Below are positions 1 to 58,043 of a stretch of DNA of 64,000 nucleotides, one piece after another. The notes beneath the pieces were generated by a model. That model was not told where the DNA came from, ran no database searches, and saw only the letters and a list, made by a program, of their open reading frames with translations. The stretch spans positions 2,552 to 66,551 of the forward strand of contig CACKXF010000001.1 in assembly GCA_902604065.1 (NCBI GenBank). Direction: 5' to 3'. The position numbers were made by a program, and so were the translations under genes. Position 1 is the first letter of the stretch; each line of letters begins with the position of its first letter. The DNA comes from an uncultured Pelagibacteraceae bacterium (lineage in GTDB: Bacteria > Pseudomonadota > Alphaproteobacteria > Pelagibacterales > Pelagibacteraceae).

Positions 1-1027
1 CAATTATTAAACTTGAGATCGCATTTATTAATGTATCTATAGTACTTAAGGTTAAAGACATCGCTAATACTAAAATTGCGATTACTATTAATGAACTTTT
101 ATCTTTGAGTATTAAATCGAAAAAAGCTAGATCAGGAATTACTTTTGAATTTAAAGAATAAGATATAAGACCTGAATAGCCCATCCAAAATACTATTAAA
201 AAAATAATTGCAGATGAATAGATTAAACTGGTTTTTAATATAGAATTATTTTTAGCTGAGAAAACTCTTTGCCAGTTTCCTTGATGGAATAAATTTGTTG
301 CAGCAACTGCTATAAAAAAAGTTAATCCTGCTGTATAGTTTGGTAAATAATTTTTATCAATTAAGTTAGGTGAGTTTTTTTTAATTATTTCATGACTTGG
401 TAAATCTAAATTTTTCAATATCAATAAAAAAGACATTAAAATTATTACTACGATAAAACTAAATTGATATTTATCGGTAATAATTGAAAGTTTAAAACCC
501 CCTCTCAATATATAGAGTAAGCAAATTATCAAAGTTCCGCCTGCTGTTAACCATAGAGGTACTTGAGATATAAAATTTAACAAAGAAGCTATTGCTGTGA
601 CTTCAGCTATTAAAAATATTGTTAAGTAAAATAATATTAAAATTAGACTTATCTTTAAAATCCCGATGCCAAATCTTTTTTTTATAAATTCGGTTAATGT
701 CAGACCCTTTGGAAACTCTTTTCTTATTTTAGGTCCAAAATTATATAAAAAGAACATTGGAGCTGCCGTGCCTAAAGAATATCCAATAACAGCACCTATT
801 CCTCCCCAAGTTGCTGCAGAAGCTGGGCCAAAAAGGATCCAAGCACCAAGTGCTGATGCTGTTAAACTTGCTGTTAATGAAAATGTATCTTCATCCCTAT
901 CTCCAACAATGTAGTTTTTGTTATTAGATATTTTTTTTGAGTTTAAATAACCTAATCCAATAAAAAATAAGCCTATTAAAATAGTAACTGATAATGTTGT
1001 TTGTGAAGATAAGTATGTTTTTTCCAT
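1..1027 (-). CDS. thiV: Sodium:solute symporter, ThiV-like thiamin-pyrimidine transporter (5' part, runs off the window)
   Basis: Identical to the 5' part of 38269..39720. ATG at 1027, directly below a TPP-like aptamer. Confidence 0.75.
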   Translation of the reverse strand, partial: MEKTYLSSQTTLSVTILIGLFFIGLGYLNSKKISNNKNYIVGDRDEDTFSLTASLTASALGAWILFGPASAATWGGIGAVIGYSLGTAAPMFFLYNFGPKIRKEFPKGLTLTEFIKKRFGIGILKISLILILFYLTIFLIAEVTAIASLLNFISQVPLWLTAGGTLIICLLYILRGGFKLSIITDKYQFSFIVVIILMSFLLILKNLDLPSHEIIKKNSPNLIDKNYLPNYTAGLTFFIAVAATNLFHQGNWQRVFSAKNNSILKTSLIYSSAIIFLIVFWMGYSGLISYSLNSKVIPDLAFFDLILKDKSSLIVIAILVLAMSLTLSTIDTLINAISSLII

Positions 1028-1028
1028 A

Positions 1029-1091
1029 TTTCCCTTACTGAATTACCGGTCAGGTTCTTCGGGTATAATCTCAGTCTTTTAGACACCCCGT
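1029..1091 (-). ncRNA. TPP riboswitch-like aptamer (variant)
   Basis: Minus strand reads CGGGGUGUCUAAAAGACUGAGAUUAUACCCGAAGAACCUGACCGGUAAUUCAGUAAGGGAAAU-AUG. It has P2 GGG/CCC, a P3 GUCU/AGAC hairpin, and the CUGAGA, AUACCC, ACCUGA, UAAU and AGGGAA hallmarks. Confidence 0.9.
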
Positions 1092-1097
1092 TTTTTC

Positions 1098-1127
1098 TTT
1101 ATACTCTTATTTTAGGTAATAAGTCAA
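1098..1127 (-). promoter_or_regulatory. Putative sigma70 promoter for riboswitch-thiV, embedded in the 3' end of umuC
   Basis: TTGACT (1127-1122), N18, TATAAA (1103-1098). Predicted start ~1091 coincides with the 5' end of the aptamer. Confidence 0.6.
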
Positions 1128-2382
1128 ATGAAGCTGTATCTATCTTTGAAGAGTGTTCCCTTCTCATTTTCCAACCTTTGCTTAAGCCAGCTTGAGCTAT
1201 GCTTATCGCGTATCTTCCATACTTTGTATTTGTATAATCTATAGCTTTCATTAATTTTTTAGATTTGTTCTCTAAAAGTGGAGTTAAAAGATTTTGATCG
1301 TTTTGATTAGCATCCTTCAAGCCTGACAAGATTATACCTGCCTTTTGGTATGAATATCCATATTTATATATATCAGTTAAGGCTTTAATAGCATTTTTTA
1401 TTAATTCTATACTATTACTAGATGGAATTGCTAAGTCTATTGTTTTTGAATTAGAATAATATTTTTTATTCTTATCAAATGGACTGGTCCTAATAAATAC
1501 GGTTATTGTTTTTGCAATTTGATCATCTGCTCTAATTTTTTCCGCTGCATTCAAACAATGTGTAATAACTGATTCTTCCAACTCATTTATATCTTTTACT
1601 TTTCTACCAAAAGATCTTGAAACACAACAATTCTTTCTTTTTTCCTGATCTATCTGTAAATCAATACACGGTATCCCTCTTAATTCCATTGCTGTTTTTG
1701 CACCTAAAACATTTGTTCCTTTTTTTACCCATGTATTTGAAACATTTTTTAAATCATAAGCATTACTGATATTATTTTTATGATAAAATTTAGATAATTG
1801 TTTTCCTACACCCCAGACATCTTCGATAGGAAATTTTTTTAATTTTTCATCAATATTTTCATTTAGATATATTACTCCTGCTTTTTCTTTTTTTGCTATA
1901 TGATTTGCAACTTTGCTTAAAGTTTTTGTACAAGCTATACCTACGCTTGTCGGTATGCCTGTCCATTTAAGCACTCTTGATCTTATCTCACTCCCGTAAT
2001 CTTCCACACCTTTTTCATCCATAAAAGATAAGTCAATAAAAGCTTCATCAATTGAATAAATTTCGACTTTTGGTGAAAAAGTTTTTAAAACTTTCATTAC
2101 TCTTCTCGATATATCTCCGTACAACGCATAATTGGATGAATATACTTCTACTTTATTTCTTTTAACTAATTCCTTAACTTTGAAGTAAGGTTCTCCCATT
2201 TTAATACCAATTTCTTTTGCTTCTTTTGACCTAGATATTACACAACCGTCGTTATTAGATAAAACAACTACGGCTTTTTTTTGTATTTTTGGATTAAAAA
2301 GTCTTTCGCATGAAACATAAAAAGAATTACAGTCTACTAAAGCTATTCTACTTTTTTTAGTTATGTACTTTATGGATGACAT
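1099..2382 (-). CDS. umuC: Y-family DNA polymerase V subunit UmuC
   Basis: Motifs ALVDCNSFYVSCE, VVLSNNDGC, SSNYALYGD, YSIDEAF and C-terminal WKMRRE. Follows umuD. Confidence 0.93.
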   Translation of the reverse strand: MSSIKYITKKSRIALVDCNSFYVSCERLFNPKIQKKAVVVLSNNDGCVISRSKEAKEIGIKMGEPYFKVKELVKRNKVEVYSSNYALYGDISRRVMKVLKTFSPKVEIYSIDEAFIDLSFMDEKGVEDYGSEIRSRVLKWTGIPTSVGIACTKTLSKVANHIAKKEKAGVIYLNENIDEKLKKFPIEDVWGVGKQLSKFYHKNNISNAYDLKNVSNTWVKKGTNVLGAKTAMELRGIPCIDLQIDQEKRKNCCVSRSFGRKVKDINELEESVITHCLNAAEKIRADDQIAKTITVFIRTSPFDKNKKYYSNSKTIDLAIPSSNSIELIKNAIKALTDIYKYGYSYQKAGIILSGLKDANQNDQNLLTPLLENKSKKLMKAIDYTNTKYGRYAISIAQAGLSKGWKMRREHSSKIDTASFDLLPKIRV

Positions 2383-2755
2383 AAGTTACTACCCCCCAAA
2401 TAATTATTTCTTGATCTTTTGCTAAAGGAATTCTGTCTGATGTTTTTTTTGATCCAGACGTTAAAAATGTTTCACCCTTTTCTTTTAAAATTGTTTTTAC
2501 GACTAATTCATCGTTAACATTGGCTATGACAGTTGAGAGATTTTTGGGATTGATGCTTCTGTCCACTATTAATAAATCACCATCATAGATTCCTACACTA
2601 TTCATTGATTTTCCCTGAACCCTAATTATAAAAGTTGCTGGTGAATTTTTTATTAGATAATTATTTAAATCTACATCGTCTTCAATGTAATCTGTTGCAG
2701 GAGAAGGAAAACCAGCTCCTACTTTATGTATATAATAAGGTATTTTAAGCTCCAT
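2357..2755 (-). CDS. umuD: UmuD (S24 autopeptidase)
   Basis: AGFPSPA cleavage site, GKSM catalytic Ser and VVK catalytic Lys. Confidence 0.93.
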   Translation of the reverse strand: MELKIPYYIHKVGAGFPSPATDYIEDDVDLNNYLIKNSPATFIIRVQGKSMNSVGIYDGDLLIVDRSINPKNLSTVIANVNDELVVKTILKEKGETFLTSGSKKTSDRIPLAKDQEIIIWGVVTYVIHKVHN

Positions 2756-2759
2756 AAAT

Positions 2760-2774
2760 GTTCCTATTTTGTTC
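2760..2774. promoter_or_regulatory. Alphaproteobacterial LexA (SOS) box
   Basis: GTTC-CTATTTT-GTTC (GTTC-N7-GTTC), 4 nt upstream of the umuD ATG. Confidence 0.88.
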
Positions 2775-2775
2775 T

Positions 2776-2804
2776 TTTATAGAAAATAATATAGCTTTAG
2801 TCAA
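2776..2804 (-). promoter_or_regulatory. sigma70 promoter of umuDC
   Basis: TTGACT (2804-2799), N17, TATAAA (2781-2776). The predicted start site falls inside the LexA box. Confidence 0.75.
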
Positions 2805-2862
2805 CTGTTATATGGGGCAATATGCGTTTGGAATTAAAATAAGTTAAAAGTTAAAAACTTAG

Positions 2863-3630
2863 ATGAAAAAAATTTTAATATTTCTAGCATTATTATTAAC
2901 AACTTCTATTGCGCAAGCTGATTCAAAGCTACAAACAATCAAAAAAAATGGCGAACTAAGAGTTGGTACGACTGGAGATTGGGATCCAATGTCAATGAAA
3001 GATCCAGCTACAAATAAATATAAAGGATTTGATATTGATGTGATGAGAGAACTAGCTAAAGATATGGGTGTAAAAGTAAAGTTTGTTCCAGCAGAGTGGA
3101 AAACAATAGTTGCTGGAATTACAGCTGACAGATACGATATTTCAACAAGTGTAACCAAAACGCCTAAAAGAGCTGAAGTAGCAGGTTTCACAGAAACGTA
3201 TTTTAAATATGGAACAGTTCCATTAGTACTTAAAAAAAATTTAAAAAAATTTCCTACTTGGGACTCATTAAACTCAAAAAAAGTTAAAATAGCTACAACT
3301 TTAGGAACATCTCAGGAAGAAAAAGCAAAAGAATTTTTTCCAAAATCTAAACTTAGATCAATAGAGGCTCCAGCACGAGACTATCAAGAGGTTTTAGCTG
3401 GTAGAGCAGACGGAAATATTACCAGCTCACTGGAAGCAAATAAATTAATCATCAAATATCCTCAATTAGCCATAGTGCCAGATGGCGGAAAGAACCCAGC
3501 ATTTTTAGCAATGATGGTGCCAAAAGGAGACAAGGCTTGGAATGATTACGTGAGTAGTTGGATTAAAAGAAAACAAACTTCTGGGTTTTTCATGACTTTA
3601 GAAGCTAAATACAATCTTAAAAGCTTATAA
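2863..3630 (+). CDS. Family 3 solute-binding protein, cyclohexadienyl dehydratase (PheC)-like clade
   Basis: Signal peptide (AQA-D), LRVGTTGDW motif and GFDIDV. Confidence 0.85.
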
Positions 3631-3671
3631 TTTTAGTTTTAATAACTTCCATTAATTAATATAGTCAATCT

Positions 3672-4406
3672 GTGAAGATTACTAAATATTTTTTATTATT
3701 GTTTGTTCTTCAAGGGTGTAGCTCAAACTATGAATGGGGTTGGTATATATTAAGTCCAGATAATGTTGAGGGACTTACCAATCTAAAATTTCTTATAAGT
3801 GGAATAACTACTACAATTTATATTTCAGTAATTTCGATTATTTTAGCTATGATAATAGGATTAATTATTGCTTTGCCCTCATTGTCAAAAAATAAATTTT
3901 TAACATATTTGAATATTACATACGTAGAAATAGTACGAGCTATTCCCTTATTGGTTTTAATATTATGGATTTACTACGGCTTACCAATAATGTTAGGTGT
4001 AAGCTTCTCCCCTTTTGTCTCTGGTATTATCGCTTTAACAATAAGTGAAAGTGCTTTTCAAGCTGAAATTTTTAGAGCTGGTATTAATTCTATAAGCAAA
4101 GGTCAGCATGAGGTTTCGGAGTCGCTTGGAATGAGTTTTTGGAAAAAAATGAGATTAGTAATTTTACCACAAGCTATAAAAGTAGTATTACCAGCTATGG
4201 GTAACCAATTTGTATATGTTTTAAAGATGTCTTCACTTGTATCAATTATTGGAATAGCTGATTTAACAAGAAAAGCAAATGAACTTGTTACTACTACTTA
4301 TAGGCCACTAGAAATTTATACTTTTTTAATTTTAGAATATTTGGTTTTGATTTTAATAGTCTCTTATTTTGTAAGGAAATTGGAAAACAAATTAGAATAT
4401 AAGTAA
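3672..4406 (+). CDS. Polar amino acid ABC transporter permease with N-terminal lipobox
   Basis: YVEIVRAIPLLV, AEIFRAGI and an EAA-like loop. GTG start, LQGC lipobox at residues 13-16. Confidence 0.88.
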   Translation: MKITKYFLLLFVLQGCSSNYEWGWYILSPDNVEGLTNLKFLISGITTTIYISVISIILAMIIGLIIALPSLSKNKFLTYLNITYVEIVRAIPLLVLILWIYYGLPIMLGVSFSPFVSGIIALTISESAFQAEIFRAGINSISKGQHEVSESLGMSFWKKMRLVILPQAIKVVLPAMGNQFVYVLKMSSLVSIIGIADLTRKANELVTTTYRPLEIYTFLILEYLVLILIVSYFVRKLENKLEYK

Positions 4407-5753
4407 TTTTTTAAAAGATATTTTAAAGACCCGCATTAAAAAAAACGGTACAAAAGTTAAAACAATTAGTCCCATCATCCAATTTGTTATCATTATAGTG
4501 TAAAAAATATCTTGATAACCTCCATTCTTCATATTGATTACATACCATAAAGACAAAAACGGTATTAAGGTTAGTCTAAGTATAGTCATATAAAGACTAT
4601 ATATTGGTCTTTTAAGCGCTTGAAACAAAGCAGAAGTTATAAAAAATACTGGATAAACTGGGCCGATAAAAGCAGCAACTTGTAGATAAAGCGCTCCATT
4701 TTGAATTACTTGAGGATCATTAGTAAATAAAGATATTATTAGCTCCGATGTTAAGTAAATAATAATACCTGCTAAAACCATAAAGCCTGAACCAAACATT
4801 AAAGCTTTTCCGTACACTTCCTTAACTCTAAAGTGCATTTTGGCACCAAAATTTTGCCCAGCTATAGCGAGCACAGCAGTATTTAATCCTATAACTGGCA
4901 ACAATAATACTTGTTCTATTCTGACCGCTGTACCATAACCTGCCGTTGCCAACTCACCAAATTGACCAACGAAATAGAAAATATTAAATACTCCAAACAT
5001 TATCATTAACATAGTAAACATTATTGGAACTGACTGTTTAAAAAGTATGCTAATGTAATCAAGCTTTGGTTTAAAACATTCTATATATAAGTACTTTTTT
5101 AATTTACAACAGTAAACTTTATTAGCTAAATATATTAAACCTACACACTGAGCTACTAATGTGGCTATAGCTAAACCAGCAATTCCAAATGCTGGTATAA
5201 ACCCATAACCAAAAATAAATAAAGGATTAAGAAATATATTTAAGAAGAAAGTAAATATTAAAACATTTCTATAACTTTTTGTATCACCTTGTGCATTCAA
5301 AGTTCCATTTAAAGATAATTGAATTAATACAATTATGGCACCAAAAAATATTATATCTAAGTATTCACGTGTTAAAATTATACTTTGTTCGGTAGAACCC
5401 ATAATTCTTAAAAGCTCATCTGAAAAATTTAAACCAAACAAAGTTACAAAGATTGAGATAACAATTGCCAGTACTATAGACTGGGCAACGTACATAGATG
5501 CTTTTCTGTCTTCTTTAGCACCTATAGAGTTACTTATTAAAGCTGTTGTACCAGCACCAATACCAACGGCCACAGCTATTGCTATAAAATAAATTGGCCA
5601 AGATTTTGCTATTGCTGCTAGTGCTTCTGGAGAAATTTTTCCTGCGAAATAAGTATCAACTAGATTATAAAAAGTTTGAAAAAGTGATCCAGTGCTTGCA
5701 GGTATGGTTACTTTTCTTAAAAGTTGCCAAATTGAACCTCTTGTTAAATCCAT
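4392..5753 (-). CDS. MATE family efflux transporter
   Basis: 453 aa hydrophobic protein with YNLVDT, GDTK and GQNFGAK MATE motifs. Confidence 0.92.
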   Translation of the reverse strand: MDLTRGSIWQLLRKVTIPASTGSLFQTFYNLVDTYFAGKISPEALAAIAKSWPIYFIAIAVAVGIGAGTTALISNSIGAKEDRKASMYVAQSIVLAIVISIFVTLFGLNFSDELLRIMGSTEQSIILTREYLDIIFFGAIIVLIQLSLNGTLNAQGDTKSYRNVLIFTFFLNIFLNPLFIFGYGFIPAFGIAGLAIATLVAQCVGLIYLANKVYCCKLKKYLYIECFKPKLDYISILFKQSVPIMFTMLMIMFGVFNIFYFVGQFGELATAGYGTAVRIEQVLLLPVIGLNTAVLAIAGQNFGAKMHFRVKEVYGKALMFGSGFMVLAGIIIYLTSELIISLFTNDPQVIQNGALYLQVAAFIGPVYPVFFITSALFQALKRPIYSLYMTILRLTLIPFLSLWYVINMKNGGYQDIFYTIMITNWMMGLIVLTFVPFFLMRVFKISFKKLLIF

Positions 5754-5755
5754 AT

Positions 5756-6661
5756 TTAATATTCCTTTTGAAACTTATGCTTCTTTCCCGCTTTTTTAGC
5801 AAGATTAATTTGATTTTGCCTCATTCGAAATCTTGATTTTTGCAAACTTGATAGTGTGTCATAACACCTTTCACAAGAAACACCCTCTTCATATTTTTTT
5901 GATCTCTTATCTTTTGTTGATATAGGTTTCCGACACCCTCCGCAAATTGAATAAGTTCCCTGTTTTAATTTATGCTTTAAAGAAACTCTATTATCGAAAA
6001 CAAAACATTCTCCTTTCCACAAGCTATCTTTTTTTTTAGTTTTATTGAGATAATTAATTATTCCACCTTTTAATTGAAATACGTTTTTAAAACCTTTTTT
6101 TTTTAAAAATATTGATGCCTTTTCACATCTAATACCTCCAGTGCAGAACATTGCAACAGGTTTGGTTTTTTCAATTTTACTTAAAAATTTTGGAAAATCA
6201 CGAAAATTTTGTATATTTGGATTCATTGCTTTCTTAAAAGTACCAACATTATATTCGAAGGGTTTTCTTACATCAATCACAAGAGTTTTTTTTTTTGTAA
6301 TCAGTTTGTTCCAAGATTTTCCAGACAAATACCTATTATGTCTTTTGCTTTCACCATTAATTTTTAACCCAAGTGGCACTACTTCTTTTTTTATTTTTAC
6401 TTTTGCTTTGTGAAATGGTTGAAAACGACTAGTAGAAATATTATTGCTATCAAAGTCTGTGAATTTAAAACTTTTTTTTAGTAATTTTAAAATTTTAGAA
6501 ATATCTTTACTATTACCTGCAAGAGCTCCATTAATACCTTCTGATGATATTATTATTGATCCTCTAATACTAGTGTTTGATATTTCGTTTTCAAGATAAG
6601 TTTTATATTTTTTTAAGGAATTAATCTTTTTAAACTTGTAAAATCCAGATATAGTAAACAT
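5756..6661 (-). CDS. trhO: tRNA uridine(34) hydroxylase TrhO (rhodanese, YceA family)
   Basis: FYKF, EGING, DVRKPFEYNVGTF, MFCTGGIRCEKAS and GECFVFDNRV. Confidence 0.9.
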   Translation of the reverse strand: MFTISGFYKFKKINSLKKYKTYLENEISNTSIRGSIIISSEGINGALAGNSKDISKILKLLKKSFKFTDFDSNNISTSRFQPFHKAKVKIKKEVVPLGLKINGESKRHNRYLSGKSWNKLITKKKTLVIDVRKPFEYNVGTFKKAMNPNIQNFRDFPKFLSKIEKTKPVAMFCTGGIRCEKASIFLKKKGFKNVFQLKGGIINYLNKTKKKDSLWKGECFVFDNRVSLKHKLKQGTYSICGGCRKPISTKDKRSKKYEEGVSCERCYDTLSSLQKSRFRMRQNQINLAKKAGKKHKFQKEY

Positions 6662-7314
6662 TAATTTTTAATACAAATAGTTAATCCATCACCAACAGGA
6701 ATTATGTTTTTTGTAACTCTTTTATCTTGTTTAACATGGTTATTAAAATCCCTAATAATATTTGTAAATTTATCGTTGTTTGCATTGTCCGCAACTTCGC
6801 CATGCCATAATACGTTATCAATAATTATCAGGCCTTTTTTATCTATTAAATCTATACTAGTTTCGTAATAATTTAGGTAATTTTCTTTATCAGCATCAAT
6901 AAAAATTAAATCGAAAGATTTTTTTGTGTCTTTTAATTCTTTTAAACTTTCTACAGCTGGTTTAATAATTTGTTTAATTCTTTTTTCATTGGCTTTAGCA
7001 TAAAAGGATTTAGCCTTACTACTAAATTCATAATTTTTATCTAAACTAATTAAAATTCCATCAAGAGGAAGTGCCATCGCCATGGATAAAGCGCTAAAAC
7101 CAGTGAAACTACCAATCTCTAAAATTTTTTTAACGTTTGAAACTTTTATTAATGTTTGTAGAAAATGCGCTTGCGATATAGATATTTGTAATCTTTGTTG
7201 ATCTCCTAAACTTTTATTATGCTGAATAATTTCATTCTGAACATCTGATAGATTTTCTGAATGATTAATAATATATTGTTCAAGATTGTCAGTTAAATCT
7301 AATTTTTTAGGCAT
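6661..7314 (-). CDS. SAM-dependent O-methyltransferase family 3 (CCoAOMT/TrmR-like)
   Basis: LEIGSFTGFS, FIDADKENY, IDNVLWHG and GDGL. Confidence 0.88.
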   Translation of the reverse strand: MPKKLDLTDNLEQYIINHSENLSDVQNEIIQHNKSLGDQQRLQISISQAHFLQTLIKVSNVKKILEIGSFTGFSALSMAMALPLDGILISLDKNYEFSSKAKSFYAKANEKRIKQIIKPAVESLKELKDTKKSFDLIFIDADKENYLNYYETSIDLIDKKGLIIIDNVLWHGEVADNANNDKFTNIIRDFNNHVKQDKRVTKNIIPVGDGLTICIKN

Positions 7315-7316
7315 AA

Positions 7317-8786
7317 TTAGCCTTTTAAAAGTTTTTTTAAAATTTCGTTTGTTAATTGCGGGTTGGCTTTCCCGCCTGATTGTTTCATAACCTGTCCAAC
7401 AAAAAAACCAAATAATTTTTCTTTACCAGACTTATATTGATCAACTTTATCTTTATTCTTGGTTAATATTTCATTGATTATTTTTTCTAACTCTTTGGGA
7501 TCACTTTGTTGTTTCATCCCTTTTGATTCTATTATTTTTTTTGGATTTTCTCCGCTCTCAACCATTATTTCAAAAACTTCTTTTGCTATTCTGCCAGAAA
7601 TTTCTCCAGATTTTATTGATCGAACTAGTTCAGCAAAGTTTTTAGCAGAGATAGGTGAGTTAGATATATTCAGTCCTTTATCATTTAACATTGCGAATAA
7701 GTCACCCATCATCCATGTGGCTGCAAGTTTTTTATCAGATAATTTTGCCACCTCCTCATAATAGTCTGAGATATCTTTTTCAGAAACCAGAACATTTGCT
7801 TCATATGAATTAAGTCCGTAATCGTTAATAAATCTCTCTTTTTTATTATCGGGTAACTCAGGTAAAGTTTTTTTTAATTCATCGATTAATTTTTGTTCAA
7901 TTTTAAGAGGTAAAAGATCGGGGTCTGGAAAATATCTATAATCATGGGCGTCTTCTTTTGATCTCATTGATCTTGTTTCATTTTTCTTTGTATCGAAAAG
8001 TCTTGTCTCTTGGTCAATCTTTTTTCCGTCATCTAACATTTCAACTTGTCTATTTGATTCATATTCTATCGCCATTTGCATAAATTTAATTGAATTTACA
8101 TTTTTTATCTCACATCTTGTTCCAAGCTTTTTATCTCCGATTTTTCTTACTGATACATTTACATCTGCTCTTAATGAACCCTCTTGCATATTACCATCGC
8201 AGGTTCCTAGATATCTCATTATGGTTCTGAGTTTTTTTATATATACATTAACTTCATCTGGAGATCGAAGATCTGGTTTACTTACTATTTCCATTAGCGC
8301 AATTCCAGAACGGTTTAAGTCTACATAAGTATTTGTGGGATCCATGTCGTGAATGCTTTTACCCGCATCTTGTTCTAAATGAAGTCTTTCAATACCAATT
8401 TCTTTTGAACCATATGGCATATCCAATAAAACCTTTCCTTCACCAACGATTGGATTTTTATATTGTGAAATTTGATAACCTTGTGGAAGATCTGCGTAAA
8501 AATAATTTTTTCTATCAAATACTGAATTATTATTAATCTTAGCATTTAGTCCTAAACCAGTCCTAATAGCTTGGTTTATGCACTCTTTATTTATAACTGG
8601 CAGCATTCCAGGAAAAGCAGAGTCTATAAGACTTACTTGGCTGTTAGGTTCAGCTCCAAATTTAGTTGCAGATCCAGAGAAAAGTTTTGAATTTGAAGAT
8701 ACTTGAGCATGAACTTCCAAACCAATTATTACCTCATACTTATTTTTCTTTCCTTCTATATAATAGTCAAATTTATCTTTGCTCAT
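7317..8786 (-). CDS. gatB: Asp/Glu-tRNA amidotransferase subunit B
   Basis: [20 protein letters not shown] and YRYFPDPDL. Start placed at the ATGA overlap with gatA (ORF extends to 8795). Confidence 0.97.
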
Positions 8787-10240
8787 AACCACCAATTCTT
8801 TATTTCATTTTTAAAATTACAATTTTTTTCAAAAGCATAAGCCACATTCAATATATTTTGCTCATCTAAAGTCTTTCCAATTAACTGCAACCCTAGTGGA
8901 TAGCCCTTTTTATCTAAGCCTGCCGGTACCGATATTGCAGGTAAACCAGCTAAATTCACTGGTACAGTAAATATATCATTGAGATACATAGAAATAGGGT
9001 CATTAGTCTTTTCACCAATTTTAAATGCAGAACTTGGTGTTGAAGGTGTCAAAATAGCATCTACCTTACCAAAATTTTCATCAAAATCTTTTTTAATAAG
9101 CTGTCTAACCTTTTGAGCTTTAAGATAATAGGCATCATAATATCCTGATGACAAAACGTAAGTACCAATTAAGATTCTTCTCTTTACCTCATCTCCAAAT
9201 CCTTCGGATCTTGTATTCTCGTACATTTCAATTAAATCATTTCCTTTTGATGATCTATAACCATATTTTACTCCATCATATCTAGCTAAATTTGAAGAAG
9301 CTTCAGCTGGTGCAACTATATAATATGTTGGCAATGCATACTTTGTGTGAGGGAGCGAGATGTCAATTATGTCAGCGCCTAATTCTTTTAAAATATTTTT
9401 TCCCTTGTTCCATAATTCGTCAATTTCTTTTGGCATATTTTCAACTCTATATTCCTTAGGTATGCCAATTTTGAGACCTTTAATATCTGTTTTCAAATTT
9501 TTTGAATAATTTTCTTTTTTCTTTTCTATAGATGTGGAGTCTTTTTTATCAAAACCTGCCATAGCCTCTAACATGATCGAACAATCTTTAACAGATTTAG
9601 TCATTGGACCAGCTTGGTCAAGGGATGAGGCAAAGGCAACAATTCCCCAACGTGAACATAATCCATAAGTTGGTTTTAGTCCGACTGTTCCAGTGAAAGA
9701 GGCTGGCTGTCTTATTGAGCCGCCTGTATCGGTTCCAATTGTTGCAGGAGTTAAATTTGCTGCAAGTGCAGATGCAGAGCCCCCGGATGAGCCCCCAGGA
9801 ACAGTATTCTCAGCTATTGGATTTATAACATTTCCAAAATAACTTGTTTCATTTGACGATCCCATTGCATATTCATCGCAATTCAATTTGCCAAGTAAGA
9901 TAGCACCCTCTTTCCATAAATTTTCTGTAATGGTGGACTCATACTTTGGTATAAAATTTTTCAACATTTTACTACCAGCTGTAGTTTTAAATCCATCAGT
10001 ACAAAAAAGATCTTTTACAGCCAACGGGATTCCTGGAAGTAAAGAGTTTATGTTCGGCTTTTTGTCGAATTCTTTTGCTTTCTGAATAGCATTTTCAAAA
10101 CAGGTAGTTATATACGAGTTGAGTTTTTTGCTTTTATTTACTTTATCAATATAAAGATTAGTAAGCTCTTCGGATTTAATCTCCTTTTTTTTTATTAACT
10201 CTATAATTTCTGATAGGTCTTTTTTTATAATTTCTGACAT
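8783..10240 (-). CDS. gatA: Amidotransferase subunit A
   Basis: Amidase signature GGSSGGSA and [12 protein letters not shown]. Confidence 0.97.
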
Positions 10241-10527
10241 TATTCAATAACCTTTGGAACAACGAAAAATTCTTCGTTATTTTTTGGTGAATTTTTAAGA
10301 ATCTTTTCTCTTATTTTTCCATCATCTATTTTATCTTCTCTTGACCTGAGCGGTGTGTTTAAAATTGAAGATAATGGTTCTACTTTATCAGTATTTAACT
10401 CATTTAATTGCTCTATAAATTTGAATATAGATGTTAAATCTTTTGCTAATAAGTCAGATTTTTTTGAATCTATAGAAATTCTAGCTAACTTACTAATATG
10501 TTTAATTTTATCTTTATCTATGGACAT
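10240..10527 (-). CDS. gatC: Amidotransferase subunit C
   Basis: ISKLARI and FFVVPKVIE. Upstream of gatA. Confidence 0.95.
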
Positions 10528-10581
10528 CTGTGATTTATGTTATTTATATAGGAAATTAATATCATAAAATATAATAAATAA

Positions 10582-11046
10582 ATGTTGGATATTGAGGAAT
10601 TTAAGAAAAAACTAGACAAAAAATCAAGGCTTATAGGCATTGATCCTGGAAAAAAGCGAATAGGTATAGCTATTTCAGATGAAAATAAAATAGTCGCTAC
10701 TCCATATACAACTATAATTAAAAAAGATTATTCTAGTTTTTTGGCTGAAATAAAGAAAATAGTCCACGAAAATACTGTTAAAGGTATTGTGGTTGGAAAT
10801 CCCATAAATATGGATGGGTCATCTGGATCCTCATCTCAATCTGCAAAAGATTTAGCATTAAACTTATCAAAAGATGTTACACAAAATATCGTTTTGTGGG
10901 ATGAAAGACTATCAAGCGAGGGGGCATTCAATTTATCTAGCAATTTAGATATAAATGTAAGTAAAAAAGTACAAAAATTAGACGAAAATGCGGCTCAATT
11001 CATATTACAAGGGGCTTTAGATTATTTAAATAAAAATAATACTTGA
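10582..11046 (+). CDS. ruvX: YqgF/RuvX pre-16S rRNA nuclease
   Basis: GIDPGKKRIGIAISD, WDERLSS and AAQFILQG. Confidence 0.93.
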   Translation: MLDIEEFKKKLDKKSRLIGIDPGKKRIGIAISDENKIVATPYTTIIKKDYSSFLAEIKKIVHENTVKGIVVGNPINMDGSSGSSSQSAKDLALNLSKDVTQNIVLWDERLSSEGAFNLSSNLDINVSKKVQKLDENAAQFILQGALDYLNKNNT

Positions 11047-11072
11047 TAAGATAGCACAAAAGGCCTATAGAG

Positions 11073-12026
11073 TTGATTTTAATGGCAGTAATAAAAAAGT
11101 CCTCAGCTATTAAAAACTCACCCAAACATCTTTTAGGTATTCAAAATTTATCAATATTAGAAGCTAAAAAAATTTTAAACGAGGCAAAAACTTTTATTAA
11201 ATTGAATAGAAGCAATACCAAGAAGTTGAATACTTTAAGAGGAAAAACCCAAATCAATTTATTTTTTGAACCGTCAACTAGAACACAAAGTTCGTTTGAC
11301 CTGGCTGGCAAAAGATTAGGTGCTGATGTTATGACTATGAATATGAGTAACTCCGCTTTAAAAAAAGGTGAAACTCTTATTGATACGGCTATGACATTAA
11401 ATGCAATGCATCCGGATTTGATAGTTATTCGTCATCAAGACTCTGGTGCACCAAATCTACTTTCACAAAAAGTTAATTGTGCGGTAATAAATGCTGGGGA
11501 TGGTAGAAGAGAACACCCTACTCAGGCCTTGCTTGATGCTTTAACAATAATAAGCCGCAAAGGTAATATTGAAGGACTTAAGATAGCAATCTGTGGTGAC
11601 ATACTCCATTCTAGAGTCGCTAGATCAAATATCTATTTAATGAATATGCTTGGAGCTGAAGTAAATGTGATTGCCCCTAAAACTCTAATGCCAAAATCAA
11701 TTGAAAGATTAGGTGTTAAAGCTTTTACTAATATGAAAAAAGGCTTAGATGGATGTGACATTGTTATGATGTTGAGATTGCAAAATGAAAGAATGCAAGG
11801 ATCATTTCTTCCTTCTAAAAGAGAATACTATGAGTACTTTGGTTTAACTCCAGAAAAATTAAAGTTTGCCAACAAAAATGCTTTGATCATGCATCCTGGT
11901 CCAATGAATAGAGGAGTAGAAATAGATACTAAATTAGCTGATGATATTAATGTAAGTCTGGTGAAAGAACAGGTTGAACTTGGAGTAGCTGTTAGAATGG
12001 CATGTTTAAAATTATATTGTAAATGA
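11073..12026 (+). CDS. pyrB: Aspartate carbamoyltransferase
   Basis: [16 protein letters not shown] and MHPGP. True start may be the ATG at 11082. Confidence 0.97.
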
Positions 12027-13309
12027 ATGAAAAAATTATAATAAACGCTAGAATTGTTGATCCATCTCAAAAATTAGATGAAATGGGTTCAGTGATTATT
12101 GATAAAAATGGAAAAGTAAAAGCTATTGGGAAAAAAGTAACTAAAAAAGACTGTCCAAATGCTGAGGTAATTGATGTTAAAAAAAATCTAATAATACCTG
12201 GTATCGTTGATATGAAGGCATTTGTTGGTGAACCAGGATTTGAATACAAAGAAAATTTTAGAACTTTAAGTCAAGCAGCTCTTGCAGGTGGTGTAACTTC
12301 AATTGTTACGATGCCTAACACAAAACCTATTATAGATAATGTCTCCATGGTTGATTTTATAATGAGACGTGGAAGAGATAAATCAAAAATTAATCTCTTT
12401 CCATGTGCTTCACTCACAAAACAAATGGAAGGTAAGCTGATGACAGAATTTGGTTTATTGTCAGCAAAAGGAATTATTGGATTTAGTGATGTAAACAAAA
12501 CAGTTCAAAATACCGAGACTATGGCAAGAATAATGGACTATGCATCAGATATTGGTGTTTTGATTATGCAGCATGCTGAAGATTACGAATTATCGAAAAA
12601 TAGATGTATAAATGAAGGTGAAGTATCTAATAGACTTGGTTTGAGTGGAATATCACCAATAGCTGAAAAAATTATTATAGAAAGAGATCTCTCTTTATTA
12701 AGTGAATTCCCATGTAGGTACCATATAAATCAAATTTCATCTCGGAATTCTTTAGATGTTATTAAAAAAAATAAATCAAATGGTAAAAAATTTAGTGTTG
12801 GGGTTTCAATAAATAATATTTCCCTTAATGAAAATGACATTGGGGACTTTAAAACATTTTTAAAACTATCTCCTCCTCTTAGATTGGAAGATGATAGAAA
12901 AGCACTAGTTGAGGGAATAAAAAACGGACTTATTGATGTTATAGTTTCAGATCATACTCCTGAGGATGAGGAAAGTAAAAGACTTCCTTTTGCTCAAGCA
13001 GCCACTGGTGCTATAGGTGTAGAAACTCTTCTACCGCTAGCATTAGAACTATATCATAATGAATCTTTGTCACTTAATAAGATAATTGAATGTTTAACAA
13101 TTAATCCATCTAATGTTCTTAAGATTAACAAAGGCACTTTAAAAATGGGGTCCGATGCAGATATTTGTGTTATTGATTTAAATAAACCATGGGTGGTCAA
13201 AGCAGGAAATTTAAAATCTAAGTCTAAAAATACCGCTATTGAGGATAAAAGATTACAGGGTAAAGTTTTGATGACCTTTTTGAAGGGTGAACCTGTATTT
13301 AAAACTTGA
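12023..13309 (+). CDS. pyrC: Dihydroorotase-like protein, probably inactive PyrC'
   Basis: Amidohydrolase with MPNTKP and SDHTP. The metal-binding HxH is replaced ([10 protein letters not shown]). Confidence 0.88.
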
Positions 13310-13887
13310 AAATGGAAATTATAATTTTATCTTTATGTTCATATCTTATAGGGTCAATTCCATTTGGTTTAATATTTACTAAATTTTTTTTAAAAAAAGA
13401 TGTAAGAAAAATTGGATCCGGAAACATAGGTGCTACTAATGTACTTCGGACTGGTAATAAAATTTTAGCTTTATTAACTTTAATTTTTGATATTGCTAAA
13501 GGATATTTAGTAGTTAAAATTTCTTTTATTTATTTTCCTGACTTAATATATTTGACAGGACTAATTTGTTTCATTGGTCATATTTTTCCTGTCTGGTTAA
13601 AATTTAAAGGTGGTAAAGGAGTAGCAGTTTATGTTGGTATAATTTTAGCTTTATCGTTTAAATTAGCTTTAATTTTTGGAGCCACTTGGTTAATTGTTTT
13701 ATTTTTATTTAGATATTCTTCTCTTTCATCTATCTTCGCATCATTGTCGTTAATAATTTATAATTTATTTTTTAATGATAATTTTCAAAATTTTTTTTTA
13801 ATTCTATTTTTCTTGATTATTATTTATACCCACAAACAAAATATTTTGAGAATTAAAGACAAAAGGGAAACTAAAATAAAGTTTTAA
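13306..13887 (+). CDS. plsY: Glycerol-3-phosphate acyltransferase
   Basis: GSGNIGATNVLR and FKGGKGVA. Confidence 0.95.
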   Translation: MKMEIIILSLCSYLIGSIPFGLIFTKFFLKKDVRKIGSGNIGATNVLRTGNKILALLTLIFDIAKGYLVVKISFIYFPDLIYLTGLICFIGHIFPVWLKFKGGKGVAVYVGIILALSFKLALIFGATWLIVLFLFRYSSLSSIFASLSLIIYNLFFNDNFQNFFLILFFLIIIYTHKQNILRIKDKRETKIKF

Positions 13888-13959
13888 TTTATTAGGTTTT
13901 TTAAGTTAAATTTAAATAAATTTGACTTTTATTCCAAATTTTGAAATTAAGTCTTTAAT

Positions 13960-16533: not shown

Positions 16534-16742
16534 AAAAATTTATTTGTGTGTTAATTTTTTTAACATATCAAAGCCCTATTTTTGCAGATGAAAATAAAGG
16601 TTGTGATGGAATATTAGCTAAACTTAAAAAAGAGTGTAATATTGTTGGTAAAAGTTTAGACAAAATGAAAGATTTTAGCAGTAAAAATAAAACAATTGAT
16701 CAGTCTCTTGAAAATATTAAAGATAAACTTAAAAAAAAATGA
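16530..16742 (+). CDS. Small hypothetical exported protein (70 aa)
   Basis: Signal-peptide-like N-terminus and two Cys. ATGA overlaps with both topA and ridA. Confidence 0.7.
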   Translation: MKKFICVLIFLTYQSPIFADENKGCDGILAKLKKECNIVGKSLDKMKDFSSKNKTIDQSLENIKDKLKKK

Positions 16743-17110
16743 GTGTTGATGAAAATTTAAAAAAATTAAAAATTGATCTACCTGATCCACCTGCGCCAGT
16801 CGGCGCTTATACAGCGTTTAAAAAAATAGGGAAATTATTATTTATTTCGGGACAAATCTCTTTAGACTCAAATGGAGTATTAATTAAAGGAAAAGTTGGA
16901 TCTGAAATCAACTTAGAAGTTGGTAAAAAAGCTGCAGAAACATGTTGTATTAACATTGTGGCACAATTAAAAAAAGCATGTAATGGTAACTTAGATAAAG
17001 TAAATTCATGTGTCCAACTAGCTGGATATGTAAATTCTTCAGATAATTTCATTGATCAACCAAAAGTTCAATGGACCAAAAGACGCAAAAAATTTTTTAA
17101 AAAAGATTAG
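16739..17110 (+). pseudogene. ridA: Truncated, chimeric RidA-family gene (110 native aa plus 13 junction-derived aa)
   Basis: Identical to 55432..55760, then diverges at 17068. Lacks the C-terminal RSAV...LPLGAAVEI. Confidence 0.9.
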
Positions 17111-37261: not shown

Positions 37262-37353
37262 TGGCGGAAGAGGAGAGATTCGAACTCTCGGTACGATGTT
37301 ACTCGTACGGTTAGTTAGCAACCAACTGGTTTCAACCGCTCACCCACTCTTCC
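37262..37353 (-). tRNA. tRNA-Ser(GCT)
   Basis: Acceptor stem GGAAGAG/CTCTTCC, anticodon arm GTTGG-TTGCTAA-CTAAC, long variable arm, GTTCGAATC T-loop and encoded CCA. Confidence 0.96.
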
Positions 37354-37423: not shown

Positions 37424-38296
37424 ATGAAGAAAAAATTATTCGAAGGATCTTTATATACAATCGGAGCCTCTTTATGGTGGGGTATAATTGGAGTTATCTA
37501 TTTTAAATTTGTATCTTTTGCATCTCCAATTGAACTAACAATTCACCGCACATTGTGGACCGCCCTGCTTTTGGTCGTTACAACTACTTACTTTAAAAAA
37601 TGGCCAGAATTTATTAATATTTGGAAATCTTATAAAACGATATTTCTACTATTTTTAACTGGTCTTTTGGTGTCAATTAACTGGTTTACTTGGCTTTACT
37701 CAATTTCAGTCAATAACATGCTAGATGCTTCGCTTGGTTATTATATTTTTCCAATATTTAGTGTTTTTTTAGGTAAAATTTTTTTAAAAGAAAAAGTTAA
37801 TAGAAATAAAATAATAGCCATTATTCTCGTATTTGTATCAATTATTTATTTGCTTATTGGGTTTAAAAATATTCCTTGGATTGGATTAACTGTAGCAATT
37901 ACTTTTAGTTTATATACTTTGATTAGAAAAAAAATAAATATCTCATCTGATTTAGGACTATTTATAGAAACTTTGCTAATATCTCCTATAGCGCTTATTT
38001 TATTTTGTTCATTAGTATTTAATGGTACCAATATTTTTGGCTTTAACAATCTAGAACTATCTATTTATTTATTTTTTGCAGGCTTCATGACACTAGTTCC
38101 TCTTTTTATGTATATAAAAGGTTTTGAATTAATAGGTATTGGTCCTGCTAGTATGATATTTTTTTTAACGCCAACAGCTCAGTTTTTTTTGAGTATTTTT
38201 TATTTGGATCAAACTTTAAATACTGAAAAACTGATTAGTTTTATATTTATATGGATTGCTGTTTTGATTTATTTAAATGAATTACGAAAAGAGTAA
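37424..38296 (+). CDS. rarD: RarD/EamA family transporter
   Basis: HRTLW, NW, ASLGYYIFP and ETL motifs. About 10 TM segments. Confidence 0.9.
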   Translation: MKKKLFEGSLYTIGASLWWGIIGVIYFKFVSFASPIELTIHRTLWTALLLVVTTTYFKKWPEFINIWKSYKTIFLLFLTGLLVSINWFTWLYSISVNNMLDASLGYYIFPIFSVFLGKIFLKEKVNRNKIIAIILVFVSIIYLLIGFKNIPWIGLTVAITFSLYTLIRKKINISSDLGLFIETLLISPIALILFCSLVFNGTNIFGFNNLELSIYLFFAGFMTLVPLFMYIKGFELIGIGPASMIFFLTPTAQFFLSIFYLDQTLNTEKLISFIFIWIAVLIYLNELRKE

Positions 38297-39720
38297 ATTA
38301 ATATCATTACGAAAGGCACAACTAAAGAAATTACAAAAGAAACAAAAAGTAAGTTTGTTTTAATAAAATTTGAAAAATTATCCTCAGATATTAAGTTTCC
38401 AACCAAGATACTAGTTTGAAAATTTTGACTAGGAAAAAATAATAAACCAAAAAAAAGTCCACAAATTATAGAGAAAGTCGCTAATGTGGAATTGATTTTT
38501 TTATTAAAGAAACCATAAAATATTGTTATAACCGCTGCACAACAAAGCAAGTCAGCTAATAAAAATAAATAAAGAATGCTATAGCCTTTAGACGCTAGAA
38601 TAAAAACAAATATACTTAATAATAAAATTATTAAATTAGTTTTATCTTTAATATCTTTTCCACTTAGTTTTTTGTTAATTTGATCACCATTTACAATTAT
38701 TAAACTTGAGATCGCATTTATTAATGTATCTATAGTACTTAAGGTTAAAGACATCGCTAATACTAAAATTGCGATTACTATTAATGAACTTTTATCTTTG
38801 AGTATTAAATCGAAAAAAGCTAGATCAGGAATTACTTTTGAATTTAAAGAATAAGATATAAGACCTGAATAGCCCATCCAAAATACTATTAAAAAAATAA
38901 TTGCAGATGAATAGATTAAACTGGTTTTTAATATAGAATTATTTTTAGCTGAGAAAACTCTTTGCCAGTTTCCTTGATGGAATAAATTTGTTGCAGCAAC
39001 TGCTATAAAAAAAGTTAATCCTGCTGTATAGTTTGGTAAATAATTTTTATCAATTAAGTTAGGTGAGTTTTTTTTAATTATTTCATGACTTGGTAAATCT
39101 AAATTTTTCAATATCAATAAAAAAGACATTAAAATTATTACTACGATAAAACTAAATTGATATTTATCGGTAATAATTGAAAGTTTAAAACCCCCTCTCA
39201 ATATATAGAGTAAGCAAATTATCAAAGTTCCGCCTGCTGTTAACCATAGAGGTACTTGAGATATAAAATTTAACAAAGAAGCTATTGCTGTGACTTCAGC
39301 TATTAAAAATATTGTTAAGTAAAATAATATTAAAATTAGACTTATCTTTAAAATCCCGATGCCAAATCTTTTTTTTATAAATTCGGTTAATGTCAGACCC
39401 TTTGGAAACTCTTTTCTTATTTTAGGTCCAAAATTATATAAAAAGAACATTGGAGCTGCCGTGCCTAAAGAATATCCAATAACAGCACCTATTCCTCCCC
39501 AAGTTGCTGCAGAAGCTGGGCCAAAAAGGATCCAAGCACCAAGTGCTGATGCTGTTAAACTTGCTGTTAATGAAAATGTATCTTCATCCCTATCTCCAAC
39601 AATGTAGTTTTTGTTATTAGATATTTTTTTTGAGTTTAAATAACCTAATCCAATAAAAAATAAGCCTATTAAAATAGTAACTGATAATGTTGTTTGTGAA
39701 GATAAGTATGTTTTTTCCAT
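38269..39720 (-). CDS. thiV: Sodium:solute symporter, ThiV-like (complete)
   Basis: 483-aa SSS-type membrane protein (ASALGAWILFGPA, HQGNWQRV, STIDT) downstream of the TPP-like aptamer. Confidence 0.78.
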   Translation of the reverse strand: MEKTYLSSQTTLSVTILIGLFFIGLGYLNSKKISNNKNYIVGDRDEDTFSLTASLTASALGAWILFGPASAATWGGIGAVIGYSLGTAAPMFFLYNFGPKIRKEFPKGLTLTEFIKKRFGIGILKISLILILFYLTIFLIAEVTAIASLLNFISQVPLWLTAGGTLIICLLYILRGGFKLSIITDKYQFSFIVVIILMSFLLILKNLDLPSHEIIKKNSPNLIDKNYLPNYTAGLTFFIAVAATNLFHQGNWQRVFSAKNNSILKTSLIYSSAIIFLIVFWMGYSGLISYSLNSKVIPDLAFFDLILKDKSSLIVIAILVLAMSLTLSTIDTLINAISSLIIVNGDQINKKLSGKDIKDKTNLIILLLSIFVFILASKGYSILYLFLLADLLCCAAVITIFYGFFNKKINSTLATFSIICGLFFGLLFFPSQNFQTSILVGNLISEDNFSNFIKTNLLFVSFVISLVVPFVMILIYSFRNSFK

Positions 39721-39721
39721 A

Positions 39722-39784
39722 TTTCCCTTACTGAATTACCGGTCAGGTTCTTCGGGTATAATCTCAGTCTTTTAGACACCCCGT
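39722..39784 (-). ncRNA. TPP riboswitch-like aptamer (variant), copy 2
   Basis: Identical to 1029..1091. Confidence 0.9.
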
Positions 39785-39790
39785 TTTTTC

Positions 39791-39820
39791 TTTATACTCT
39801 TATTTTAGGTAATAAGTCAA
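39791..39820 (-). promoter_or_regulatory. Putative promoter inside the umuC 3' end, copy 2
   Basis: Identical to 1098..1127. Confidence 0.6.
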
Positions 39821-41075: not shown

Positions 41076-41448
41076 AAGTTACTACCCCCCAAATAATTAT
41101 TTCTTGATCTTTTGCTAAAGGAATTCTGTCTGATGTTTTTTTTGATCCAGACGTTAAAAATGTTTCACCCTTTTCTTTTAAAATTGTTTTTACGACTAAT
41201 TCATCGTTAACATTGGCTATGACAGTTGAGAGATTTTTGGGATTGATGCTTCTGTCCACTATTAATAAATCACCATCATAGATTCCTACACTATTCATTG
41301 ATTTTCCCTGAACCCTAATTATAAAAGTTGCTGGTGAATTTTTTATTAGATAATTATTTAAATCTACATCGTCTTCAATGTAATCTGTTGCAGGAGAAGG
41401 AAAACCAGCTCCTACTTTATGTATATAATAAGGTATTTTAAGCTCCAT
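41050..41448 (-). CDS. umuD: UmuD, copy 2
   Basis: Identical translation to copy 1. Confidence 0.93.
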   Translation of the reverse strand: MELKIPYYIHKVGAGFPSPATDYIEDDVDLNNYLIKNSPATFIIRVQGKSMNSVGIYDGDLLIVDRSINPKNLSTVIANVNDELVVKTILKEKGETFLTSGSKKTSDRIPLAKDQEIIIWGVVTYVIHKVHN

Positions 41449-41452
41449 AAAT

Positions 41453-41497
41453 GTTCCTATTTTGTTCTTTTATAGAAAATAATATAGCTTTAGTCAA
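41453..41497 (-). promoter_or_regulatory. LexA box (41453-41467) and umuDC promoter, copy 2
   Basis: GTTC-N7-GTTC and TTGACT-N17-TATAAA. Confidence 0.85.
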
Positions 41498-41555
41498 CTG
41501 TTATATGGGGCAATATGCGTTTGGAATTAAAATAAGTTAAAAGTTAAAAACTTAG

Positions 41556-42323: not shown

Positions 42324-42364
42324 TTTTAGTTTTAATAACTTCCATTAATTAATATAGTCAATCT

Positions 42365-44446: not shown

Positions 44447-44448
44447 AT

Positions 44449-46007: not shown

Positions 46008-46009
46008 AA

Positions 46010-48933: not shown

Positions 48934-49220
48934 TATTCAATAACCTTTGGAACAACGAAAAATTCTTCGTTATTTTTTGGTGAATTTTTAAGAATCTTTT
49001 CTCTTATTTTTCCATCATCTATTTTATCTTCTCTTGACCTGAGCGGTGTGTTTAAAATTGAAGATAATGGTTCTACTTTATCAGTATTTAACTCATTTAA
49101 TTGCTCTATAAATTTGAATATAGATGTTAAATCTTTTGCTAATAAGTCAGATTTTTTTGAATCTATAGAAATTCTAGCTAACTTACTAATATGTTTAATT
49201 TTATCTTTATCTATGGACAT
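48933..49220 (-). CDS. gatC: GatC, copy 2
   Basis: Identical translation to copy 1. Confidence 0.95.
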
Positions 49221-49274
49221 CTGTGATTTATGTTATTTATATAGGAAATTAATATCATAAAATATAATAAATAA

Positions 49275-49739: not shown

Positions 49740-49765
49740 TAAGATAGCACAAAAGGCCTATAGAG

Positions 49766-52580: not shown

Positions 52581-52652
52581 TTTATTAGGTTTTTTAAGTT
52601 AAATTTAAATAAATTTGACTTTTATTCCAAATTTTGAAATTAAGTCTTTAAT

Positions 52653-58005: not shown

Positions 58006-58043
58006 ATGATTCTTTTATTAATTAATATCATTACTTTTAATAA

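Follow-up and report, generated by a model that had tools for sequence, protein, structure and literature searches.

SAR11 bacteria are the most abundant heterotrophs of the sea, and their need for HMP shapes the marine cycling of vitamin B1. Members of the group live on imported HMP (PMC11452348); for HTCC1062, a TPP riboswitch in front of the transporter has been on record since 2009 (PMC2704228) and was later named as the probable regulator of thiV (PMC4260697, PMC11452348), its ligand specificity and activity being still to be confirmed according to the 2024 paper (PMC11452348). An element of this kind is present in the 64,000-nt stretch of an uncultured Pelagibacteraceae bacterium analyzed here (termed the window in the following); the initial annotation had presented it as a variant in which the pyrimidine sensor is intact, the pyrophosphate arm altered and P1 not evident, and which controls a ThiV-like transporter. 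The locus thus raises the question whether an RNA that has given up textbook contacts to the pyrophosphate of TPP is still a working switch and, if so, which ligand it reads. The thiV riboswitch has been known since 2009; its variant anatomy is apparently undescribed: no paper on a CG-less, P1-less anatomy or with binding data for any SAR11 element was found in the literature covered, which was incomplete.

The element and its genomic neighborhood

The RNA is encoded on the minus strand, which the initial annotation had left unmentioned; its reading of positions 1091 to 1029 was exact. The aptamer core (1031..1090, minus strand) comprises P2-P3-J3/2-P2'-J2/4-P4-P5-L5-P5'-P4' and was delimited by the alignment to the Rfam TPP model, by sequence and by the structure on 77 relatives. 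From 1090 to 1031 it reads CGGGG-U-GUCU-AAA-AGAC-UGAGA-UUAUA-CCCG-AAGAA-CCUG-ACCGG-UAAU-UCAGU-A-AGGGA and is followed by AAU and AUG (1027-1025); the landmarks are CGGGGUG, the P3 hairpin GUCU-AAA-AGAC, CUGAGA, AUACCC and, ahead of AAU-AUG, the second arm ACCUG-ACCGG-UAAU-UCAGU-AAGGGA. The reading frame directly behind it (2..1027, minus strand; taken from the ORF list) is the 5' part of a thiV-like sodium:solute symporter gene that leaves the window at its start; its match to Pfam SSF (PF00474, E 2e-10) agrees with the ThiV-type transporter proposed initially. Upstream of thiV, a umuD-like (Peptidase_S24) and a umuC-like gene (IMS, IMS_C, DUF4113) occupy 1099-2755 of the minus strand, and this umuDC-thiV synteny is kept throughout the window's genus; the umuC stop codon TAA (1101-1099) falls into a −10-like box (see below), and the intergenic space to thiV measures 71 nt in all.

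A second aptamer core, identical to the first (39724..39783, minus strand; RF00059 match of again 42.2 bits), precedes a full-length thiV-like gene (38269..39720, minus strand), the 483-aa product of which covers Pfam SSF over 1-406 of 406 positions, matches TIGR00813 and belongs to transporter clade 2 (see below). The source of this copy is a direct repeat of 19.6 kb in the contig (C1:1-19618 = 38694-58311, one mismatch); in window terms, 1-17067 and 38694-55760 correspond to each other at a distance of 38.7 kb, with the umuDC-thiV region and the riboswitch doubled. Given the streamlined 0.87-Mb, 75%-complete assembly, the repeat looks more like an assembly artifact than a true duplication. 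The window further contains an ordinary tRNA of 89 nt (37265-37353, minus strand) with a long variable arm and the anticodon loop UUGCUAA, from which it was read as probable tRNA-Ser (GCU).

Relation to the TPP riboswitch family

The Infernal check with RF00059 proposed at the outset returned a match to the TPP family that stays below the gathering score of 54.3 bits: positions 1100-1014 of the minus strand were aligned at 42.2 bits (E 3.8e-7 for a 351-nt stretch, 2.3e-7 for the genome), the model columns of J4/5 "AU" and J5/4 "CG" were both deleted, and all five P1 pairs of the model were mismatched. At the Rfam gathering threshold, the tRNA was the sole match in the whole window and the TPP element was not reported; apart from TPP, no Rfam family hit the element except for a chance-level match of snoU30 on the opposite strand (E 9.8). 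The same holds for its relatives: the 79 variant elements sampled scored between 35 and 49 bits, and none of them reached the RF00059 cut-off. Some weak extra RF00059 matches (24-26 bits; L051, L052) were situated within ORFs, lacked the aptamer motifs and were dropped. Three properties of the TPP family are accordingly missing, i.e. the covariance score, P1 and the CG of the pyrophosphate sensor, whereas P2/P3 with the CUGAGA pyrimidine sensor and the linkage to thiamin genes are present. Judged by its sequence, the element is a conserved, selected and derived member of the TPP lineage.

The comparison with the TPP riboswitch (THI element) as represented by the E. coli thiM aptamer illustrates both sides: P2-P3 with the CUGAGA T-loop, ACCC, J2/4, the CCU/AGG helix P4, G60, P5 with the UAAU loop core and the site ahead of thiamin-pathway genes are shared; in contrast, the variant is devoid of P1, U62 and P3a, its P3 is limited to four pairs, and a single base, paired with A61, stands in for C77-G78.

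The pyrimidine-sensor arm (1060..1090, minus strand) was delineated from the sequence and from invariance and covariation among the 77 relatives. P2 is formed by C1090-G1087 with C1063-G1060, G1086 is bulged and U1085 pairs with A1066; P3 consists of G1084-U1081 with A1077-C1074, and J3/2 (CUGAGA) extends from 1074 to 1069. The intactness originally ascribed to this sensor is borne out: CUGAGA, GGGG and ACCC are unchanged in 77/77 relatives, and both helices covary, one P2 base pair being present as AU (34), CG (14), GC (2) or UA (1), and P3 pairs alternating between UA/CG and UA/AU/CG.

The remodeled second arm

In canonical TPP aptamers, G60, C77 and G78 are highly conserved and position the pyrophosphate-bound metal ion (PMC3764141, PMC7824784); the direct contact to the pyrophosphate is attributed to G78 in one account and to C77 together with G78 in the other (PMC3764141, PMC7824784). 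In the window, the second arm (1033..1054, minus strand; assigned by the RF00059 alignment and by pair counts in the relatives) is altered exactly at this site, as had been recognized initially: C77-G78 (J5/4 CG) is gone, U62 is deleted and P5 includes a C.A mismatch. P4 is formed by C1054, C1053 and U1052 with A1035, G1034 and G1033; G1051, the equivalent of G60, faces A1036; P5 comprises A1050, C1049, C1048, G1047 and G1046 with U1041, C1040, A1039, G1038 and U1037 (C1048.A1039 mismatched) and is closed by the L5 loop UAAU (1045-1042). The initial annotation had described J5/4 as changed from CG to UA; the loss of CG stands, but the two bases do not form a loop: the U pairs with the remaining A of J4/5, and the A is a variable position facing G60.

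The pair counts point to the same arrangement. Pair 1050-1037, which takes the place of the J4/5-J5/4 loop, covaries as AU (48), UA (24) and GU (5) and is unpaired in none of the 77 sequences, which is the positive outcome of the covariation check suggested with the initial annotation. The G60 equivalent is invariant (77/77) with A (38), G (38) or U (1) opposite, and the UAAU loop is likewise invariant; the invariance of the arm is partly built into the class-defining regular expression and was not taken as evidence. The C.A mismatch of P5 is converted to U-A in 9 of the 77 sequences. On the transporter tree, the GU forms (A-to-G) have at least four separate origins, and so has the change from C.A to U-A (a fifth case of the latter is found in genome G633, which is flagged as unpublished); in a related type with 12 members, the next pair is changed from C-G to U-A. 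Since every observed P5 substitution keeps or improves pairing, the register of the arm is secure. With the proposed structure, 86.8% of the cells of the 77-sequence alignment were paired, a value equaled by 0/500 shuffles, and slid registers performed far worse. According to this predicted structure, the pyrophosphate loop is now a helix.

Absence of P1 and overlap with the ribosome-binding site

The lack of P1 was examined by the duplex energy between two 16-nt flanks, one preceding P2 and the other starting at the end of P4, in comparison with permuted or shuffled controls. P1 was detected by this test in the canonical relatives, which served as positive control (−5.8 kcal/mol for their own flanks versus −2.9 for shuffled ones); in the variant (class B) overall, the own flanks paired no better than permuted/shuffled ones (−1.9 versus −1.6 kcal/mol), and the flank duplex of the window amounted to −0.2 kcal/mol, in line with the absence stated initially. 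Analyzed by genus, the test was non-significant in g1, g4 and g8; in g2, 0.8% of the permutations were as low as the own flanks (−0.85 versus −0.55 kcal/mol for permuted ones), the energies being negligible.

A promoter-like sequence (1098..1127, minus strand) became apparent from the sequence and the comparison within the genus: TTGACT (1127-1122) and TATAAA (1103-1098) are separated by 18 nt and located within the end of umuC, and TTGACT-(16-18)-TATAAA/T, searched as a regular expression, ends 6-13 nt before P2 in 19/19 loci of the window's genus. The consensus promoter scan left TTGACT-18-TATAAA, with its −10 ending in A, uncalled; TTGACT also codes for Phe-Asp of UmuC, so the −35 overlaps coding sequence. 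If this promoter is used, the transcript would start at about 1091-1090, the foot of P2, and no sequence would be left to form P1.

The Shine-Dalgarno sequence AAGGG (1036-1032, minus strand) includes the AGG of the P4 3' strand and is separated from AUG by 4 nt, as had been noticed initially. AAGGG is complementary to the 3' end of the 16S rRNA (...ACCUCCUUUCU / ...GGAUUACCUCCUUUCU in a complete genome of the family); the SAR11 16S tail carries GGAUUACCUCC. In genus g4 (L076, L082, L083, L085, L087, L088), thiV apparently starts with UUG at 0-3 nt past AGGGA; in this genus, R-AGG of P4 would then have to serve as the Shine-Dalgarno sequence, at a very short distance from the start codon.

A terminator-like site was absent from 900-1400 of the window. 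The isolated P4-P5 arm was calculated at −3.7 kcal/mol; for the leader, the aptamer fold reached −7.6 and the minimum-energy fold −13.2 kcal/mol. The aptamer fold would thus require stabilization from outside, as expected of a switch. Folding of 990-1125 (minus strand) yielded a non-aptamer fold with a z of 0.01 versus shuffles, a result that is uninformative for an RNA dependent on ligand or tertiary contacts. A CUGA/UCAG helix (−2.3 kcal/mol) was considered as anti-sequestrator and rejected, just 3 pairs being left in the U..A form of the variant.

Distribution and selection

Of the 151 family genomes searched with RF00059, 123 yielded one element each, which exceeded the cut-off in only 25. 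When read individually, the 123 aptamers fell into discrete types: 30 are canonical, with A(U) in J4/5, CG in J5/4 and often a clear P1; 79 possess the arm of the window, CCUG-N-CYGG-UAAU-UCAG-N'-R-AGGGA; 12 have a related CG-less arm, CCUG-GAUUGG-UAAU-UCAAUU-AGGGA; and 2 are odd, among them L090 with a CG-less arm of its own (see below). When 401 genomes of the order were scanned for the exact pattern, the window arm was present once each in 261 of 340 family genomes (G633, flagged as unpublished, included) and in 0/60 genomes of the sister family. The variant is hence far from being private to the window, a possibility raised by the initial annotation, and the recurrence of the same arm as a single copy per genome is far beyond chance. 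In a scan of about 185,000 species, all but two of the matches listed were titled Pelagibacter, Pelagibacteraceae or Pelagibacterales; the two non-SAR11 matches were set aside as a chance terminator palindrome without CUGAGA (L185) and a SAR11-like 2.9-kb contig binned as Flavobacteriaceae (L182).

Between sequences, the aptamer cores are 86% identical; the corresponding values are 49% for thiV third positions that are synonymous, 53% for the 5' flank and 61% for the protein sequence. The initial annotation had left open a degenerate aptamer; the high core identity relative to the synonymous positions and the pairing-preserving changes of P5 speak against it.

Transporter phylogeny and the thiamin pathway

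The genes 3' of the variant code mostly for ThiV-type transporters, in one genus for NMT1/THI5-like proteins and in one case (L060, genus g2) for the thiaminase II TenA, i.e. exclusively for proteins that supply HMP. In genus g2 (L053-L068; e.g. L053:374-1240), the CG-less aptamer precedes the gene of an NMT1/THI5-like protein of 289 aa that lacks an evident signal peptide and for which the candidate roles are a THI5-type HMP-P synthase or a ThiY-type binder; a PDB sequence search gave an ABC solute-binding protein as sole match and did not separate the two. If the protein is a THI5-type HMP-P synthase, HMP auxotrophy would end in this genus.

Downstream of the family's canonical aptamers lie genes for other SSF transporters, for a TorF-like porin with an SSF gene behind it, or for an OarX-like SDR (examples are L021, L032 of genus g17, L008 and L017, where a TorF-family porin plus SSF is controlled or a short-chain dehydrogenase of OarX type, NF006393, 356 bits). 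Like the variant, the canonical riboswitches of SAR11 and the sister family are AT-rich and compact, bear the Shine-Dalgarno sequence in or beside the P4 3' strand and control an SSF importer; they differ in that J4/5 AU and J5/4 CG are kept, in scores of 55-72 bits and in genes other than those of clade 2 (the other transporter clade, a ThiB-like binding protein, SDR or TorF-like porin). Those of genera g12 and g10 exhibit a clear GUUUUC/GAAAAC P1, unlike the variant.

In a maximum-likelihood tree of 101 SSF proteins, two clades were resolved with 100% support: clade 1 (23 rows) comprises the transporters behind canonical aptamers and that of L090, clade 2 (78 rows) only those behind CG-less aptamers, which amounts to one inherited association rather than 78 independent ones. 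Within one SAR11 genus, most genomes combine clade 2 with the variant and four combine clade 1 with a CG-containing aptamer; as each pairing is kept, transporter and switch travel together. The exception in clade 1, L090:287-391, has the CG-less arm AUCCG-CAUG-GUAAUG-CAUG-AGGGA and precedes a transporter that forms a long branch within the canonical clade; its sequence hints that this arm was derived separately and that loss of the pyrophosphate loop is recurrent in SAR11. Non-SAR11 homologues of ThiV (about 32% identity) are preceded by canonical TPP riboswitches (52-72 bits) with CG and P1, and in the sister family, arms of canonical type stand ahead of genes for ThiB-like binding proteins. 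The occurrence of canonical aptamers in the paralogous clade, the sister family and the non-SAR11 homologues indicates that the canonical form is ancestral and the variant derived. In the sister-family loci L257-L260 (45-56 bits; periplasmic ThiB-like gene), the canonical arm is accompanied by a P3a stem, and P1 is apparently weak or absent; loss of P1 may be a general habit of the order.

ThiC was found in none of the 151 family genomes, the whole family therefore being auxotrophic for the pyrimidine; ThiE was present in 142 of 151 and in 57/57 good ones (tally including G068, flagged as unpublished). Riboswitch class did not correlate with pathway content, every genus lacking ThiC and possessing ThiE; nor can a reading with altered specificity be told from one with TPP as ligand by gene context.

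Proposed mechanism and ligand

The element is most likely a working minimal translational OFF switch, as far as its sequence permits this judgment. According to the proposed mechanism, the intact P2-P3-CUGAGA sensor would bind a ligand of the thiamin pathway by its HMP (aminopyrimidine) ring, and the second arm, a nearly continuous P4-P5 hairpin with the invariant G60 facing a purine, would dock beside the first arm, whereby P4 is stabilized; the P4 3' strand shares the Shine-Dalgarno AAGGG, so that ribosomes would be kept from binding and less of the pyrimidine precursor of B1 would be imported. The switch would consist of one piece, with neither P1 nor a separate expression platform, and be transcribed probably from the foot of P2. 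Precedents, rather than evidence, are provided by other riboswitches: In SAM-II/SAM-V of Pelagibacter, the Shine-Dalgarno sequence is built into the aptamer and a separate expression platform is unneeded, and variant riboswitch classes with changed specificity have arisen by few pocket changes on a conserved scaffold. SAM-II has been listed in P. ubique (Meyer 2009, PMC2704228).

As ligand, TPP (or thiamin phosphates) may be read via a rebuilt, probably Mg2+/G60-based site; this complete reading, a minimal OFF switch descended from the TPP riboswitch and responding to TPP or thiamin phosphates by a rebuilt pocket, is adopted tentatively, its probability lying a little short of even. TPP through a rebuilt pocket is slightly favored over an HMP-type or unphosphorylated ligand because in sister genomes both kinds of switch serve one physiological purpose and because the geometry of the arm has been retained: in sister genera of the same pathway make-up, canonical aptamers with CG control the paralogous SSF importer, and the length of J2/4, the arm lengths and G60 are preserved in the variant. 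The uptake data of HTCC7211 are consistent with feedback by the thiV riboswitch (PMC11452348). Against TPP stands the absence of C77 and G78, the loop of which is closed by a covarying pair; as the canonical pocket is under selection elsewhere in the family and the order, AT drift alone does not explain why it was lost here.

The same mechanism might alternatively operate with changed specificity for HMP, HMP-P, HMP-PP or unphosphorylated thiamin, a pyrophosphate at TPP distance being left unread; this is a serious possibility, judged somewhat less likely than TPP. It would account for the loss of C77-G78 and U62 and for the Watson-Crick pair that replaces the pocket loop in 78/78 aptamers of clade 2 (classes B and C), for the separate rise of a similar CG-less arm in clade 1 (L090), and for the HMP-supplying function of all genes under the variant (ThiV, TenA, NMT1/THI5-like) in organisms that lack ThiC and depend on imported HMP (PMC11452348); moreover, the CCGGUAAUUCAG module is near-frozen compared with the freely varying P5 of canonical aptamers, its invariance resulting partly from the class definition. 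However, canonical TPP aptamers on non-SAR11 ThiV homologues and on the paralogous SAR11 importer indicate that such a gene does not require a new ligand, G60, the arm geometry and L5 are kept, and closure of C.A to U-A in 9 sequences leaves no obvious new pocket. If specificity was changed, the HMP-PP riboswitch (thiS motif; Atilho et al. 2019, PMC6478431), which reads the pyrimidine branch, would be a functional analogue; it differs by its terminator-embedded, unrelated fold and its linkage to thiS from the variant with its SSF gene, presumed translational control and lack of a terminator (900-1400). That the CG-less, P1-less aptamer of clade 2 would constitute a separate, TPP-derived riboswitch class for HMP, HMP-P, HMP-PP or unphosphorylated thiamin appears rather doubtful from the sequences compared.

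Two further explanations dispense with a rebuilt pocket. The leader could be independent of any ligand, i.e. a decayed aptamer that persists only as a structured ribosome-binding region or as the site of another factor: the score below the Rfam cut-off, the loss of two defining features (P1 and the J5/4 CG) and the unremarkable thermodynamic folding would fit, and predicted diatom TPP riboswitches are reportedly non-regulating (cited in PMC11452348). Such an explanation is improbable in view of the ligand-contacting CUGAGA and P2/P3 frame, invariant in 77/77 with covarying stems, the core identity of 86% versus 49%, and the single copy per genome that is always positioned immediately ahead of an HMP-supply gene. 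Still less credible is a hidden canonical TPP riboswitch, in which P1 or the pocket would be contributed from beyond the 16-nt flanks or the arm would be misaligned. The AT-rich flanks are indeed rich in short complementarities, and a 6-pair helix of GAGUAU (1106-1101) and AUACUU (1012-1007) can be made out by inspection; but its upstream partner is located within the −10-like box or farther upstream, the flanks of class B pair no better than controls in the very test that finds the canonical P1, and the P5 register is fixed by at least four A-to-G and at least four C-to-U changes and by the AU/UA swap.

Implications for SAR11

Annotation at the RF00059 cut-off overlooks the variant in most SAR11 genomes. 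As the smallest natural TPP-like switch, it could be of use as a compact sensor part. ThiV is the HMP importer of SAR11 and the thiV riboswitch its only evident control; the textbook pyrophosphate contacts have been lost under strong selection, so that either TPP can be read by a 60-nt RNA in another manner as well, or specificity has shifted naturally towards a B1 precursor. In the latter case, the HMP import of SAR11 would be adjusted to the precursor rather than to the finished cofactor.
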